Source of the DNA: Verrucomicrobiota bacterium
Lineage (GTDB): Bacteria > Verrucomicrobiota > Verrucomicrobiia > Chthoniobacterales > JAFAMB01
Direction: 5' to 3'
Assembly: GCA_019239825.1 (NCBI GenBank)
Contig: JAFAZK010000156.1
Span: forward strand, 3,080 to 67,079
DNA: 64,000 nt
Both the position numbers and the translations under genes were made by a program. Each line of letters opens with the position of its first letter. Positions within the stretch are counted from its first letter, which is position 1. The notes beneath the pieces are model-generated. The model saw only the letters and a program-made list of their open reading frames with translations. It had not been told where the DNA came from and searched no databases. This document shows positions 5,015 to 63,879 of this stretch, piece by piece.

Positions 5015-6730
5015 TTAAGTCGGTGCTGAAGTATCAATTGGAAGCGGCCCGGTAACTCTTTGGTTAGGTAGCTCCTGTGCAACTCTGGCTATTTGGCGGG
5101 CGAGATGCCCAATCTGCTTAGATTGCTCAATCATGTCCATGGCCAGACTAAAACTCGCTACATCTTTTTTTTCCGAAAGCTCAAGCTTGGCGAAAACGCT
5201 TGCCCGAGCCAATTCCGCCAGTTCTTGGATTTGCGCCTTAGCTGCCAGCACCTTTTCTGCGTTATCCCGGTGCGCCGAATCAATGGCAGCGATCGACTGT
5301 TGCAATGTTTGAAACACTGCCTCAGTGAAGGCAGATGTGCGCTCGTCCCTCAACCTCGCCAAATCGATTCCCGCAGCCAACCTTTGACGACCTCGCGAAG
5401 CGAGATTGGTGGTGATGACGTCGCTCAGGGACTCCAGGGTGCTTGCTATTTGCGCCAGACCAATCATCTCTCGGGCTTGAATCTTAGTGTGTTCCAACTG
5501 AGACAATCTTCCGAGATAAATGAGAATAGAAGATTCGAGTCTATCTATCCGGCTGTTCCGGTTAACCAGGGCGTCCAGATCCTGTTTCCCGCCTTCGACG
5601 AACACGCTTCGGGCGCGTTGAACCATCTCCACGATAAATTGACCTAAGCGGCCTAATTCCAAGTAAACTCGTTGAACGCCCAGCGACGGCGCGGTTAATC
5701 CTGATTCGTCGAGGTAGATTGGTTCAAAATCGTCTGCGACTTTTCGGCGACGCGAAGGGACGATCATCTGGGCAATTTTGGCCACTGGTCCGGTAAACCA
5801 GATCAAGACAAACGTGGTCGCGACGCTGAAAAGAGTATGAGCGTTAGCGAGTTGCCGCGGAGTTTCCGCCGCCAAACGCGCAGCGCCCTCTAAGTCCGTT
5901 GCGCTCGGCGAAATATGCCGAACTAGCTCGGCTAACTGGGGAATAAAAAATACCCAGGCTATCACTCCAAAAACATTGAACAGCAGGTGCACGACTCCTA
6001 CCTGAAGCGCACCGGCCGATTTTCCAATCGCTGCTAACAGTGCCGTAACACAAGTGCCTACGTTTGCCCCGAAGATTAAAGCGATACCGGCTTCTAGAGG
6101 CATAAGGCCTTGACTGGCTATCGCAATCGCGATTGCGATCGTCGCTGCAGAACTTTGTACGATCGCGGTAAAAAAGGCGCCTAAAAGAATCCCCACCAAC
6201 GGATTCCGCATGTCCTGTATAACCTCGATGAACGGCTGGAAGCTCCTAAGTGGGCGGGTCCCGTCTCCCATGAATTGTATTCCAAGAAAGAGTAACCCAA
6301 AACCCAGGATCATGGTGCCAAGGTGACGAAAGGCTTCGCGGCGACCCAAGGAGCGAAGCAGGAATCCGACCGCCAGGATCACGGGCGTCGCGGCTGACAA
6401 ATTGAAGGCGATAATTTGCGCGGTAATGGTGGATCCGATATTGGCACCCATGATCAAAGGCACCGTCTGATTCAGCGTCATTAGACCGGCAGACACGAAA
6501 CCAACCATCAGGACAGTGGTGATCGTTGATGAGTTAAGGAGAGCGGTAACGAAAGCGCCCGCTAGCAGGCCGCGAAAACGACCGGCAGTAAGTTTACCCA
6601 ATGCCGTTTGCAGTCCCGGGCCAGCCACCGCTTTTAGACTAGCGGTCATTAATTCCAAGCCAAAAAGAAACAGGGCCAGCCCGCCAGCGATCAAAGCCAG
6701 CATTGGCAGCAGATCTAGCTCGTTAGACAT
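5015..6730 (-). CDS. Na/Pi cotransporter family protein with PhoU-like C-terminal region
   Basis: Duplicated GANIGSTIT / GANVGTCVT motifs in a polytopic N-terminal half, with a long helical C-terminal half as in NptA/YjbB-type proteins. 53 nt upstream of ppk2 on the same strand. Confidence 0.85.
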   Translation of the reverse strand: MSNELDLLPMLALIAGGLALFLFGLELMTASLKAVAGPGLQTALGKLTAGRFRGLLAGAFVTALLNSSTITTVLMVGFVSAGLMTLNQTVPLIMGANIGSTITAQIIAFNLSAATPVILAVGFLLRSLGRREAFRHLGTMILGFGLLFLGIQFMGDGTRPLRSFQPFIEVIQDMRNPLVGILLGAFFTAIVQSSAATIAIAIAIASQGLMPLEAGIALIFGANVGTCVTALLAAIGKSAGALQVGVVHLLFNVFGVIAWVFFIPQLAELVRHISPSATDLEGAARLAAETPRQLANAHTLFSVATTFVLIWFTGPVAKIAQMIVPSRRRKVADDFEPIYLDESGLTAPSLGVQRVYLELGRLGQFIVEMVQRARSVFVEGGKQDLDALVNRNSRIDRLESSILIYLGRLSQLEHTKIQAREMIGLAQIASTLESLSDVITTNLASRGRQRLAAGIDLARLRDERTSAFTEAVFQTLQQSIAAIDSAHRDNAEKVLAAKAQIQELAELARASVFAKLELSEKKDVASFSLAMDMIEQSKQIGHLARQIARVAQELPNQRVTGPLPIDTSAPT

Positions 6731-60451: not shown

Positions 60452-60840
60452 AGCCGTCTTCGCGCGTGCAACTCTAACAATAACATCACGCCTAGCTCGG
60501 CGCTCGTGATTACTCTCGCTCCAATAGACGCGCGCATCCGAAGTGCGTCAGTCGCTAACATCCTCATTGATCAAGCTGAAGACTAATCAACCAAGGCGAT
60601 CATGGAGTTTTTTGGACCCGGGTGAGGAAGCGGCTTGGCAAAATAACGTGCAAAAGACGTGAGAGCTAGCTGCAAGACAATCCCTCAACCTGTGAGCAAA
60701 GCTAACCAAGAAAACGTGGAACATCCCCGACGGTTAAGCATAGATCTAGAAACGCGGCACAAAAACAATCCTATGAGAAGTGTTTATTTGTGCTTGCTAG
60801 TCGGCTAGGGGTGTCGTTTATTAGCCGACCCCTAACTGTT

Positions 60841-61353
60841 ATGAACAGAAGAGCAGTAGTTCTAGCGGGGTTAGCGAGCCTCGCCGCGGCAGTTGCGGCT
60901 CCCCCTGTTGTACAATCGCAGACGTCCGACGAAACCGAGATTCCTGAGTTAGAACCCCTTCGCGCGCTGCTCAAAGCGCTCGATGTGGCCTTTAGCAATC
61001 AGGACCTCGCTGGAGTCATGGCTACGCTGTCCGATAATGCGGCAATCATGGGCAGCGGTCCCGGAGAAATCTGGTCTGGTACTGATGAAATCAAAGCGGC
61101 GTATCAACACTTTTTTGAGGGATTCGATAGTGGGCAACAAAGTTTTGATTACGAATTCAGTCTCGGCAAAATTGGAGCAGACTCCGGTTGGATGATGACT
61201 TCCGGAAACGTCAGCGGGACGAAGGATGGAAAAGAATTCACTTTTCCAGTTAACATCTCGCTAGTTGCCACCAAGGATGGAGGGAAGTGGCTGATCGCAG
61301 CGATGCATTTTTCGACCCTGACGGGCGACACTGAGGAGAGGGAGGAAGACTAA
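60841..61353 (+). CDS. Secreted NTF2-fold protein (SnoaL/DUF4440-like)
   Basis: ATG at 60841 gives the signal peptide MNRRAVVLAGLASLAAAVAAPPVVQS, followed by an NTF2-like core. 16 nt upstream of the repeat peptide gene. Confidence 0.65.
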   Translation: MNRRAVVLAGLASLAAAVAAPPVVQSQTSDETEIPELEPLRALLKALDVAFSNQDLAGVMATLSDNAAIMGSGPGEIWSGTDEIKAAYQHFFEGFDSGQQSFDYEFSLGKIGADSGWMMTSGNVSGTKDGKEFTFPVNISLVATKDGGKWLIAAMHFSTLTGDTEEREED

Positions 61354-61369
61354 CCTCGCTTCTATATTT

Positions 61370-61648
61370 ATGGATAATGAACCATCCTCTCAGTTAGATA
61401 GCTCCAAGCAGGAACAGGATTCGGTGAATAGGCGTCTGTTTCTGCGGAGTGTCGGGAAATGGTCGGCTGCAGCGATTGCTGCGGTTGGCTTGTGCGGTGC
61501 CTGGTTGGCAACTGAGTCTAAGGCCGGCGTTTGGATCAACCGCTGGGGACCGCGTCGTCGTGGCCGGTGGATCAATCGTTGGGGCCCGCGCGGCCGATGG
61601 ATCAATCGCTGGGGGCCTCGTCGCGGTGGGTGGGTGAATTGGTGGTAA
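61370..61648 (+). CDS. Trp/Arg-rich repeat peptide with twin-arginine-type signal (candidate RiPP precursor)
   Basis: MDNEPSSQLDSSKQEQDSVNRRLFLRSVGKWSAAAIAAVGLCGAWLATESKA, then GVWINRWGPRRRGRWINRWGPRGRWINRWGPRRGGWVNWW. Differences between repeat cores are all synonymous. Sits directly upstream of a radical SAM/SPASM gene pair. Confidence 0.7.
   Translation: MDNEPSSQLDSSKQEQDSVNRRLFLRSVGKWSAAAIAAVGLCGAWLATESKAGVWINRWGPRRRGRWINRWGPRGRWINRWGPRRGGWVNWW
61532..61630 (+). repeat. Three in-frame tandem coding repeats (36, 30 and 33 nt), each encoding WINRWGPR plus an Arg/Gly spacer
   Basis: Units at 61532-61567, 61568-61597 and 61598-61630, followed by a degenerate WVNWW tail (61631-61645). Confidence 0.9.
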
Positions 61649-61795
61649 CGGACGCAGCCCGGCGAAGCCGTAACGAAAAATCAAGCGCTGTAAACGGCGT
61701 ACCGGTGTCTGGGTGTATCGCCGTAAACCGAGCTTAATTTCCCTCTAGGATTTTCGCAAAAATCGAAGATTTGCGGACAGAGGAGGAGTGGATCT

Positions 61796-62668
61796 ATGCG
61801 CGTGTCTGAGGAAGCTTACCCTTCTTTGAGGATTATGCCTTCTGCGCTGGCAGAAACACAAGAGGAGTTGCCCTTCGTCGTTATCGTTCGGAATCGAGCC
61901 GAATTTTTTCGCTGGTTACGGAAGCCACCTCGCGCTTTGAGGTGGCTTCAGGTGGAAGGAATGTTGGCGGACTCCGAAGCTTGGGCGGAGGCGGCCCACA
62001 ACGCTTCTCACGTTCCTTTGGATGTGATGCTTTTCGATCCGGCTTCAGAATTTTCCGATCTTTACAGATTGGTAGATGTATGTGCAGCTCGGGAAGTCCG
62101 GGTGACCGTGCCCGCCGCGCCAGGTTTAGCGAAAGTGGTCAGGCTGGCGGCGGCCCTGCGACTCCCGATTCGGGTGTTGCCGGGGCAGCCGGCAGCTGAG
62201 GCGCTGGAAGAGCTGCACGACGCTCTGGAGTTCTATCTTCACGAGCCGATGGTTGAAACCCCCGTGGAGTTCTTTCACTCCTTGCTCGCAGCCATGTCCG
62301 GCGGCGATGCGAACTCGCTGTGGATGATACTCGAGGAGGACGCGGAGGCTTTCCAGCTTTTTGATGCCGACGGGCAGCCAAGATTGCCACGAGCAGCCGA
62401 TTCAGACAAGGTCATGACGGCTAGCGCGGCATTTGTTGAGACTCATCTGAACCGTCTGATAGCGGAAGGCGCCGAATGCGCCACATGTCCATGGCAACAG
62501 CAATGCCGAGGATATTTCAAATGGCCCGATCCCCTTTACTCGTGTGAGGGTATTAAGCAGCTCTTTTCCAGTATTCAGGTGGCCGGGAACGAGATTAGGA
62601 AAGAATTGGCCGATATCGCCACAGCGGATGCGGAAAGTATCTCAAGTCCCGGAGGGGATGCCATATGA
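61796..62668 (+). CDS. Hypothetical protein with C-terminal four-Cys cluster (partner of the rSAM enzyme)
   Basis: A strong AGGAGG (61781-61786) precedes the ATG. 290 aa with no CxxxCxxC motif. C-terminal CATCPWQQQCRGYFKWPDPLYSC (C-x2-C-x5-C-x12-C). The stop overlaps the downstream start (ATGA). Confidence 0.7.
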   Translation: MRVSEEAYPSLRIMPSALAETQEELPFVVIVRNRAEFFRWLRKPPRALRWLQVEGMLADSEAWAEAAHNASHVPLDVMLFDPASEFSDLYRLVDVCAAREVRVTVPAAPGLAKVVRLAAALRLPIRVLPGQPAAEALEELHDALEFYLHEPMVETPVEFFHSLLAAMSGGDANSLWMILEEDAEAFQLFDADGQPRLPRAADSDKVMTASAAFVETHLNRLIAEGAECATCPWQQQCRGYFKWPDPLYSCEGIKQLFSSIQVAGNEIRKELADIATADAESISSPGGDAI

Positions 62669-63879
62669 GCGAACGAGTCTTCAGCGTTATTCTTCTTCCT
62701 ACTTCGGACTGCAATGTAGCCTGTGACTACTGTTTTGAACACAAAGAACCGCATCGGCTTTCGCCAGCCTTGCTCCCGTTGCTGACGAAGCGCTTGCTCG
62801 ATCATCTTGAGAACGAAGACATAGAAGAATGCGAAATCTATTGGCAGGGCGGAGAGGCTATGGTCATGGGTCCCGCTTGGTTCGAGAATGCCGGCGAGGT
62901 AATGAACCGCGCAGCGGCCCAGCGAGGACGGCAGTTTGTACACTACTTACAAACCAATCTGATCGGTTACTCACAAGCTTGGAATGGCGTGATTCACAAA
63001 ATGTTCGACGGTTCGCTGGGGACCTCGATGGACTACCCGAATCTGTACCGGAAACTTTTCAAAGGCGGGGCCGCGGCATACACCGAACTCTGGACCAGGA
63101 AACTTCGTGAGGCGAAAGCTGCGGGCATTGGAGTGGGCGTGATCGCCGTGCTGCATCAAGGGAGTCTCGAAGCCGGTCCGGAAAGGTTCTATCGATATTT
63201 TACGGGGGACCTCGGGCTAACCGACTTCCAGGTTAACACGCCGTTTCCGGGTGGTCCCGCAAAGGAGGTTGAGGGCGGTTTCCAGCTGGATTCTAGCGAA
63301 TTAGCTGACTTTATGGTTGGGCTCTTCGATATCTGGATGGCCGAAGGGTACTCGTCCGGGGTGTCGGTGGGTCCATTTGATGCCTTGATTGATCACTTCA
63401 CCGGCAAACAAGCGCGCTTACCCTGTATCTGGAAAGAGAACTGCTCCAACCAGTTCATCTCGGTTGACGCAAAAGGGACAGTCGCTCAATGCGACTGCTG
63501 GGTTACCAGTTACCCGGAGTATTTCTTCGGAAATATTTTCCAGGACGCCGACCTGACGCGAATGCTTAAAACAAGTCGGGCACGGCGCGATTTTGTCGAA
63601 CGCCCGAAGCGTCTAGTTGAGGATGAAGATTGCCTTTCCTGCCGCTACCTTTCGATCTGCCATGGCGGGTGCCCGGTGCGGACCTACAGCGCCCTAGGTA
63701 CAATGATGGCAAAGGATCCCTATTGCGAAGTTTACAAGGCGGTTTTCGCCTGCGCCGAAACGCATGCCCGCGAGATTCTGCGCGCTCGTGCCGCCCCGAT
63801 CGTAGCGCCTAGACAGCGTCATGAAGTAGTCTTGAACCATGGCCCTCGACAAACTGAGCGGACGGCATCGGGATCATAA
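62665..63879 (+). CDS. Radical SAM/SPASM domain protein (anSME-like peptide-modifying maturase candidate)
   Basis: CNVACDYC (CxxxCxxC) at residues 16-23, WQGGEAM SAM-binding GGE motif, and a C-terminal SPASM signature CLSCRYLSICHGGC (C-x2-C-x5-C-x3-C) with upstream auxiliary cysteines. Confidence 0.88.
   Translation: MSERVFSVILLPTSDCNVACDYCFEHKEPHRLSPALLPLLTKRLLDHLENEDIEECEIYWQGGEAMVMGPAWFENAGEVMNRAAAQRGRQFVHYLQTNLIGYSQAWNGVIHKMFDGSLGTSMDYPNLYRKLFKGGAAAYTELWTRKLREAKAAGIGVGVIAVLHQGSLEAGPERFYRYFTGDLGLTDFQVNTPFPGGPAKEVEGGFQLDSSELADFMVGLFDIWMAEGYSSGVSVGPFDALIDHFTGKQARLPCIWKENCSNQFISVDAKGTVAQCDCWVTSYPEYFFGNIFQDADLTRMLKTSRARRDFVERPKRLVEDEDCLSCRYLSICHGGCPVRTYSALGTMMAKDPYCEVYKAVFACAETHAREILRARAAPIVAPRQRHEVVLNHGPRQTERTASGS

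Follow-up and report, generated by a model that had tools for sequence, protein, structure and literature searches.

The four-gene locus

The stretch of DNA analysed here (the window) comprises 64,000 nucleotides of a Verrucomicrobiota metagenome-assembled genome (MAG) contig (GenBank assembly GCA_019239825.1, contig JAFAZK010000156.1, positions 3,080 to 67,079 of the forward strand), and close to its end lie four genes that encode an exported SnoaL/NTF2-like protein, a repeat-bearing peptide, a partner protein and a radical S-adenosylmethionine (rSAM)/SPASM enzyme. Together they probably constitute a self-contained cassette for a peptide made by ribosomes and then modified after translation (RiPP) that is widespread in soil bacteria yet unstudied. 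The public records of the four products (MBV9875668-71) carry the names 'NTF2 family protein', 'hypothetical', 'hypothetical' and 'radical SAM protein'. The genes and the one signal found between them are:

60841 to 61353, forward strand: gene 1, exported SnoaL/NTF2-like protein, 170 residues; SnoaL_3 match (E 2e-13) and signal peptide
61370 to 61648, forward strand: gene 2, putative precursor peptide, 92 residues; open reading frame (ORF) with 82 unique homologues of the same layout
61781 to 61786, forward strand: Shine-Dalgarno sequence AGGAGG, 9 nt 5' of the partner start codon, read from the sequence
61796 to 62668, forward strand: gene 3, partner protein, 290 residues; predicted degenerate rSAM/SPASM fold, no Pfam or NCBIfam family
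62665 to 63879, forward strand: gene 4, putative radical SAM/SPASM maturase, 404 residues; its start overlaps the partner stop as ATGA

An earlier reading of the window, made from the sequence alone (the sequence-only reading), had described four ORFs with a 16-nt gap between the first two, a 147-nt spacer ending in AGGAGG at 61781-61786, an ATGA stop/start overlap at 62665-62668 and 121 nt between the rSAM stop and the end of the window, and all of these were recovered when the sequence was re-read. The longest ORF of gene 1 begins at a GTG at 60790, whereas the homologues and the NCBI record use the ATG at 60841. The spacer between the peptide and partner genes (61649-61795) is 147 nt here, 97 nt in locus L003 and about 16 nt in most homologues, and is therefore regarded as a lineage-specific insertion without detectable structure. 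It was considered as an attenuator or other RNA element and rejected (RNA fold z-score 0.41, no Rfam match), and promoter and terminator scans gave nothing exceeding shuffled expectation.

Conservation of the gene arrangement

Two independent searches were performed, the first seeded with the 290-residue partner against 185,579 species genomes, which returned 51 loci, and the second seeded with the rSAM enzyme alone against metagenome contigs, which returned 80 loci at 49-94% identity. The partner-seeded loci are mostly from Verrucomicrobiota, and the rest are from Methylococcaceae, Accumulibacter, Nitrospirales, Pyrinomonadaceae and other Acidobacteriota, Armatimonadota, and Hydrogenedentes. 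The cassette is present in Verrucomicrobiota, Acidobacteriota, Proteobacteria, Nitrospirales, Armatimonadota and Hydrogenedentes, and the gene order is the same in partner-seeded genomes of at least six phyla. Co-occurrence was counted over loci with the rSAM gene present and at least 1.8 kb of upstream sequence:

rSAM-seeded metagenomes, 39 loci: W-x-N repeat peptide in 38, SnoaL-like gene in 38, partner in 36, all three in 36
partner-seeded genomes, 41 loci: W-x-N repeat peptide in 39, SnoaL-like gene in 37, partner in 41, all three in 37

The arrangement is not a product of chance, since over 80 independent loci from several phyla share it. The sequence-only reading had proposed a RiPP operon and had named, as the pattern that would speak against it, rSAM homologues that normally lack an adjacent repeat peptide; the reverse was found in the rSAM-seeded loci, and because the homologues nearly always adjoin a W-x-N repeat peptide, the RiPP reading stands.

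Two kinds of departure from the full cassette were observed. Partner-less cassettes at L075 (3023-5062), L100 (164-1462) and L133 (2968-5278) retain the SnoaL-like gene, the peptide and the rSAM gene, and at least two lineages show this architecture, their rSAM enzymes being 84-86% and 51% identical to that of the window. In three Pyrinomonadaceae MAGs (L042, L043 and L049, at about 5370-6700), the partner is kept, the rSAM gene is gone and a PP2C phosphatase gene follows instead, and the peptide is shortened or frameshifted to 1-2 W-x-N motifs. These three loci look like decaying cassettes, and the degradation of the peptide where the enzyme is absent would fit a peptide that is retained only alongside its enzyme. 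The same loci, in which a partner and a short peptide occur with no adjacent rSAM gene, could instead be taken to suggest that the peptide is an unmodified Gly/Trp-rich envelope protein exported by the twin-arginine translocation (Tat) pathway, with the rSAM enzyme and partner acting elsewhere, and modification of the peptide is indeed a prediction from the genes. This alternative is very improbable, given the near-obligate linkage and translational coupling of the genes, the truncated or frameshifted state of the peptide in the rSAM-less loci, and an invariant W-x-N periodicity that resembles known rSAM substrates.

The precursor peptide

The window precursor (MDNEPSSQLDSSKQEQDSVNRRLFLRSVGKWSAAAIAAVGLCGAWLATESKAGVWINRWGPRRRGRWINRWGPRGRWINRWGPRRGGWVNWW) is divided into a leader with a Tat-type signal and a C-terminal repeat core:

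61427 to 61465, forward strand: twin-arginine motif N20-R-R-L-F-L-R-S27, then K30-W31-S32 (alignment A5)
61466 to 61525, forward strand: hydrophobic h-region A33-L46 and c-region ending S50-K51-A52, with a predicted signal peptidase I site before G53
61526 to 61645, forward strand: core peptide, 40 residues (GVWINRWGPRRRGRWINRWGPRGRWINRWGPRRGGWVNWW), Trp/Arg-rich, with a DNA tandem repeat within
61532 to 61540, 61568 to 61576, 61598 to 61606 and 61631 to 61639, forward strand: four W-x-N motifs, read from the sequence

The peptide repeat is seen in the DNA at 61532-61626, with a period of about 30, 2.9 copies and 80% matches (Tandem Repeats Finder), and the window core has a net charge of +11 and contains 9 Trp in 40 residues. 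The 82 unique homologous peptides share one common layout, with 3-13 W-x-N motifs (mean 5.7) at a spacing of 6-13 residues. Across these motifs, X2 is Ile or Val in 86% and X4 is Arg in 65% and Gly in 24%, and the residue preceding the motif Trp is Gly, Ser or Ala. The family cores are composed of 34% Gly, 16% Arg, 15% Trp and 12% Asn and have essentially no acidic residues. In the family alignment (A5), W55/N57, W67/N69, W77/N79 and W88/N90 of the window peptide are invariant or nearly so.

The only unit conserved across the family is W-[I/V]-N-[R/G], and in the clade of the window the sequence R-W-G-P-R-R takes the place of Gly linkers. The sequence-only reading had proposed three aromatic-X-X triplets (WIN, WGP and WVN) as crosslink sites. 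The W-x-N triplets (WIN and WVN) hold up as family-wide features and WGP is confined to the clade of the window; since this second Trp is clade-specific, W-x-N is taken as the conserved target and WGP as the weaker crosslink candidate.

The same reading did not recognise the peptide as a described family, and no family was in fact reached at threshold; the core does, however, resemble the GrrA/OscA1 precursors at a sub-threshold level. The GrrA/OscA1 model (TIGR04260) matches 16 of 33 diverse members at E <= 1, in the repeat region only, and the best of these matches has an E value of 9.8e-6 and 26.1 bits against a cut-off of 31, over profile positions 61-118. The window peptide itself gives no match to TIGR04260, and so does not belong to the GrrA/OscA1 family as that model defines it.

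The repeat DNA of the peptide gene is GC-rich and open in several frames (61390-61684 on the reverse strand; 61449-61737 on the forward strand, in other frames). In public gene calls, five partner homologues (P0015, P0079, P0092, P0115 and P0302) begin with a false N-terminal extension ('GSTDGVL...') that comes from reading the peptide repeats in the wrong frame, and in these records the true precursor gene can be masked.

The radical SAM/SPASM enzyme

The product of gene 4 had been called a radical SAM/SPASM protein from its sequence, and this assignment is borne out by its CX3CX2C motif and by a match to the SPASM domain model TIGR04085 at 56 bits, above the cut-off of 27. Its two cysteine regions are:

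62710 to 62733, forward strand: CX3CX2C radical SAM motif C16/C20/C23 (SDCNVACDYCF), invariant in alignment A2
63424 to 63726, forward strand: SPASM region with C254, C260, C276, C278, C323, C326, C332, C336 and C354, invariant in alignment A2

The cysteines for all three clusters are complete. The enzyme aligns over its full length to the anaerobic sulfatase-maturating enzyme (anSME; PDB 4K36/4K37) at E 4e-22, with all auxiliary-cluster cysteines matched, and to the triceptide synthase ChlB, for which a structure has been solved, at E 2e-11. Identity among homologues is 75-94% within Verrucomicrobiota and 43-59% in other phyla.

Neither the window enzyme nor nine members spanning its family reached any curated NCBIfam family. 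Profile hidden Markov model (HMM) scores for the window enzyme are:

anSME (TIGR03942): 142.5 bits, cut-off 349
DynA: 137 bits, cut-off 450
DarW: 122 bits, cut-off 650
DarE: 106 bits, cut-off 650
GrrM/OscB: 80 bits, cut-off 310
YhhB: 72 bits, cut-off 445
FxsB: 58 bits, cut-off 370
AmcB: 55 bits, below its cut-off (cut-offs 310-450)
XyeB: 48 bits, cut-off 450

The enzyme thus lies outside the families against which the sequence-only reading had suggested that it be compared (GRRM, XyeB, DarE, anSME and FxsB), and outside the characterised three-residue cyclophane-forming enzyme families (GrrM/OscB, XyeB, FxsB, YhhB and AmcB). Its gene nonetheless adjoins aromatic-X2-X3 motifs in the manner that defines triceptide precursors. 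The enzyme cluster may already sit unnamed in a published sequence similarity network. At E <= 0.1, none of the four proteins matched a PqqD/RiPP recognition element (RRE) domain, and there is no N-terminal RRE in the rSAM enzyme, since its CX3CX2C motif already begins at residue 16.

The rank of anSME as the top NCBIfam match (142 bits) and as the closest solved structure would fit a true anaerobic sulfatase-maturating enzyme whose adjacency to a peptide is incidental. The score, however, is far under the cut-off of 349, no recurrent neighbour family in about 130 loci reads as a sulfatase, and 38 of 39 independent loci have a peptide next to the gene, so that this explanation is effectively refuted by the neighbourhood analysis.

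For the chemistry, published work on Trp-x-Asn substrates provides a guide: OscB joins Trp C7 to the C-beta of Asn or Asp, XncB joins Trp C6 to the C-beta of Asn or Arg, and DynA joins Trp C6 to the C-beta of Asn (PMC11002830). Given these precedents, a Trp-Asn C-beta cyclophane is the simplest prediction for the W-x-N repeats. The same substrate might undergo another reaction, such as a Trp-Arg link, a C-O or C-N crosslink like those of DarE and DynA, hydroxylation or epimerisation. In favour of this, the enzyme scores higher with the HMMs of anSME, DynA, DarW and DarE than with those of the triceptide synthases, Arg occupies X4 in 65% of motifs, Trp-Arg crosslinks are known from WprB (PMC11851443), and DarE-type enzymes give substrate-dependent outcomes. 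The motif itself points the other way, since Asn at position 3 is essentially invariant whereas position 4 is Gly, Ser or Lys in about a third, and Trp to Asn C-beta bonds are documented for OscB, XncB and DynA; a different reaction is accordingly considered unlikely, although it is the most serious of the alternatives. The rSAM enzyme probably staples the W-x-N repeats. The analysis established gene content, synteny, motif conservation, fold and cysteine mapping; the chemistry, the role of the partner, Tat dependence, the cleavage site and the function of the product are predictions from the genes.

The partner protein

The sequence-only reading had described the gene 3 product as a Cys-cluster partner, and an invariant cysteine site is indeed present:

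62477 to 62545, forward strand: four-cysteine site C228-x2-C231-x5-C237...C250 with a GYFKWP motif, invariant in alignments A1, A3 and A4

What changes is the identity of the protein, which is better described as a degenerate rSAM/SPASM paralogue. The CX3CX2C motif is absent, which sets the partner apart from functional radical SAM/SPASM enzymes. In a profile comparison with the neighbouring rSAM family (hhalign), residues 89-270 of the partner are colinear with residues 175-374 of the enzyme (E 1.8e-4 and 4e-4, probability 35-48%). Partner C228, C231, C237 and C250 align to C323, C326, C332 and C354 of the rSAM enzyme and hence to C317, C320, C326 and C348 of anSME, which are the ligands of the second auxiliary (Aux II) cluster in anSMEcpe (PMC5715301). 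W243 occupies an Aux I ligand position, and the other Aux I cysteines are missing.

An AlphaFold2 model of the partner, built from a 51-sequence, two-clade alignment, has a pLDDT of 89.7 and a pTM of 0.86. When it was compared with 350,542 PDB chains using Foldseek, the top two matches were anSMEcpe structures (4K39 and 4K37; E 2-3e-4, probability 1.00, TM 0.52-0.56) over the whole length. It supersedes a first model from a shallow alignment, which had a pLDDT of 59 and gave only generic TIM-barrel matches. A search of the partner profile against PDB sequences gave nothing significant, with anSME third (E 4) over the CX2CX5C stretch only, and the partner has no sequence match to PqqD/RRE domains or to TIGR04347. 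The partner is quite likely a dead rSAM/SPASM paralogue retaining an Aux II-like site, given that profile comparison, cysteine mapping and predicted fold agree, none of them being overwhelming alone.

The partner family comprises 475 clusters at 50% identity, 330 of them at E <= 1e-10. Distant relatives are fused to Pfam Radical_SAM domains (P0354, P0370, P0415 and P0329), C-terminally in three and N-terminally in one, and two further members (P0350 and P0381) are fused to DUF483 and a methyltransferase, which suggests that the fold of the partner serves as a reusable module in tailoring enzymes of other kinds. At locus L029 (5716-7962), partner and rSAM enzyme are read in one frame with no intervening stop, and the junction is ...DLASQEARFRT followed by MSNRVFSVILLPT... 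A non-catalytic module that turns up next to different tailoring enzymes, or joined to them, behaves like a domain for substrate recognition or scaffolding. Because the rSAM enzyme has no RRE and the invariant K-W-S element of the leader is not needed by Tat, the partner is proposed to bind the leader, with slightly less than even confidence and with less than is placed in its ancestry.

The leader and export

The sequence-only reading had noted that no dedicated protease or ABC exporter is visible and that the peptide carries its own export signal, and this agrees with a Tat-type leader that ends in a signal-peptidase-type site. In the peptide family, a polar and acidic N-region precedes an invariant RRxFL, four variable residues and then (G)K-W-S, followed by an Ala-rich hydrophobic stretch and a small-x-small site (mostly xA-G) immediately before the first W-x-N. 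In alignment A5, R21, R22, F24, L25, W31 and S32 are invariant; the search pattern for the peptides imposed RR and F but not the L, W and S of the leader.

With a twin-arginine motif, an h-region and an A-x-A-type site, the leader of the window peptide and of the family fits the sequence definition of a Tat signal. Tat-signal HMMs match 10-13 of 33 members, with TIGR01409 (TAT_signal) matching 10 of 33 at a best E of 5e-4, and one family member scores 15.2 bits against TIGR01409, for which the cut-off is 16.7. Tat-dependent export and cleavage before G53 are predicted from these features. The absence of a protease or exporter gene is explained by a leader that would be a Tat-type signal with an A-x-A site just before the first repeat. 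Precursors with signal peptides have been described as rare among RiPPs, and in a study of bufferins macrocycles were argued to be poor substrates of general secretion (Sec) (PMC11626156), which would make Tat a sensible route for a peptide stapled before export. A full-text literature search found no paper joining the terms RiPP, radical SAM, twin-arginine and precursor peptide.

The SnoaL-like protein

Gene 1 had been read as encoding a secreted NTF2-like protein, in agreement with its SnoaL_3 match, a further match to DUF4440 and a signal peptide that is found in all homologues. Its conserved polar residues are D48, E76, E83, D96 and H156. The mature window protein has a net charge of -13, compared with +11 for the core, and over 76 loci the charges of the two are anticorrelated (rho -0.63; rho -0.76 in the Verrucomicrobiota-type clade). 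These charges hint that the SnoaL-like protein binds, carries or neutralises the product; splitting the loci by clade and dereplicating them weakened charge complementarity as evidence for binding, so that it counts as no more than a hint. The protein may also have a tailoring role or take part in an enzyme-subunit arrangement.

In the latter arrangement, the peptide would belong to the SnoaL-like protein, either as a small crosslinked subunit or as a partner that bears a cofactor, comparable to the gamma subunit of quinohemoprotein amine dehydrogenase that is matured by QhpD. Linkage of the SnoaL-like gene is no looser than that of the peptide (38 of 39 loci), both products carry export signals and have complementary charges, the conserved polar residues listed above are present in the SnoaL-like protein, and the QhpD model scores 50 bits on the rSAM enzyme. 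A repeat RiPP, however, fits 3-13 repeats and low-complexity Gly-rich linkers better than a fixed subunit does, and no redox or quinone-forming genes are conserved among the neighbours, which makes the subunit explanation improbable.

A proposed pathway

In the preferred reading, that of a stapled repeat RiPP, the 92-residue precursor would be made in the cytoplasm, where the rSAM/SPASM enzyme would modify each of the four W-[I/V]-N motifs. The reaction would most likely begin with abstraction of a hydrogen from the Asn C-beta and join that carbon to the Trp indole, so that every motif would end up as a three-residue cyclophane and become 2 Da lighter, which adds up to about 8 Da for the window peptide. 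The partner, predicted to be unable to cleave SAM, has probably kept a single Fe-S or metal site of the Aux II type, and it would dock on the rSAM enzyme, grip the leader at the K-W-S beside the twin arginines, present the repeats and delay export until modification is complete. The leader would double as a Tat signal: the general Tat machinery would carry the stapled peptide out, and signal peptidase I would free it by cutting at the A-x-A site immediately ahead of the first repeat. In the periplasm, the cationic, Trp-rich product would meet the acidic SnoaL-like protein and would most likely be bound, carried or neutralised by it. The most specific form of this pathway, in which the pseudo-rSAM partner binds the Tat-signal leader like a Tat proofreading chaperone until all repeats are stapled and the acidic NTF2-fold protein then receives the product, is tentative and rather doubtful as a whole.

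Several observations weigh against this pathway. The reaction could differ from the one proposed, since the enzyme fails all cyclophane-synthase models and scores higher with anSME, DynA and DarW. The window peptide reaches no Tat HMM threshold, its only match being to formate_TAT at E 0.035. The homology between partner and rSAM enzyme is weak by itself (hhalign probability 35-48%, Foldseek E about 2e-4), and the single in-frame fusion at L029 could be an assembly indel in a MAG rather than natural. The partner is absent from 3 of the 39 rSAM-seeded loci and from L100, and is therefore either not universally required or encoded elsewhere. Finally, the charge anticorrelation is absent outside the Verrucomicrobiota-type clade (rho -0.17), and after dereplication it is rho -0.54 (p 0.07, n 12).

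Boundaries of the cassette

The sequence-only reading had left room for the cluster to continue past the window. Inspection of the same contig beyond position 64000 does not support this: the gene after the rSAM gene, about 90 nt downstream on the same strand, encodes a 377-residue STAS-domain protein (L001, 11309-12442) and is shared by the closest relatives alone (L002 and L005), and is therefore probably outside the cassette. Neighbour clustering over the 51 genome loci found no further widely shared gene. An RND pump, a PP2C phosphatase, a histidine kinase and a glycosidase were considered as cassette members and rejected, as they recur only in a lineage-specific manner. With no other neighbour widely shared, the cassette consists of four genes and ends at 63879.

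Relation to known systems

Judged from its sequences, the cassette is an rSAM/SPASM repeat-peptide system that comes nearest to the GrrA/OscA triceptides in its substrate and is a member of no curated family. It resembles the cyanobacterial triceptide systems GrrA/OscA1 and GrrM/OscB (TIGR04260 and TIGR04261) in having a short precursor with a C-terminal Gly-rich array of aromatic-x-Asn motifs beside an rSAM/SPASM gene. Unlike GrrM/OscB, for which it scores 80 bits against a cut-off of 310, the cassette enzyme is closer to anSME and DynA, and the leader is Tat-type rather than a GrrA leader. Compared with the GrrM system, the cassette adds a predicted pseudo-rSAM partner and an exported SnoaL-like protein, and its hosts are mainly Verrucomicrobiota and Acidobacteriota. 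Four features appear to set the cassette apart from known systems: its enzyme forms a distinct clade, its leader is a Tat-type signal, its partner is a dead rSAM protein and its companion is an exported NTF2-fold protein.

DynA, DarW and DarE are the next-best HMM matches to the rSAM enzyme after anSME (137, 122 and 106 bits), but the precursors of dynobactin and darobactin are unrelated to the cassette peptide and have a single short core rather than repeats. The cassette also lacks an ABC exporter of the darBCD type that accompanies darobactin, and the crosslinked Asn of dynobactin lies at i+3, whereas the motif Asn of the cassette lies at i+2. The closest solved structure to both the rSAM enzyme and the predicted fold of the partner is anSMEcpe (PDB 4K36-4K39), with which the rSAM enzyme shares the three-cluster cysteine pattern; in contrast to anSME, the cassette has no sulfatase-like neighbour, and the partner is without the radical SAM and Aux I ligands.

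The bufferins and oxazolins, which are MNIO RiPPs, likewise use a general-secretion signal as leader and rely on housekeeping export and leader removal, and in them an accessory partner protein assists the modifying enzyme, as is proposed for the cassette partner (PMC11626156). They differ in using Sec, an MNIO enzyme and Cys-derived heterocycles, whereas the cassette has a Tat-type signal, an rSAM enzyme and predicted aromatic crosslinks. RRE/PqqD domains, WprC and the TIGR04347 pseudo-SAM/SPASM proteins resemble the partner in being non-catalytic and in lying beside, or fused to, an active enzyme, and WprC is required for the activity of WprB (PMC11851443). In contrast to the small winged helix of an RRE, the cassette partner is a 290-residue protein with a predicted TIM-barrel-plus-half-SPASM fold.

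Implications

Darobactin and dynobactin, both leads against Gram-negative bacteria, are among the Trp peptides that rSAM enzymes staple. The cassette represents an abundant, untouched family in hard-to-culture soil phyla, and its predicted products are very cationic and Trp-rich. Its biosynthetic logic is compact, with neither a protease nor a transporter, and includes a possible RiPP leader that doubles as a Tat signal. The dead-enzyme partner domain, which recurs fused to other tailoring enzymes, could be a new handle for genome mining. If true, the pseudo-rSAM/Tat reading would give RiPPs a new way of recognising the leader, exporting the product and protecting the producer, and would define a reusable 'pseudo-rSAM' recognition module that is also fused to other rSAM and methyltransferase enzymes.

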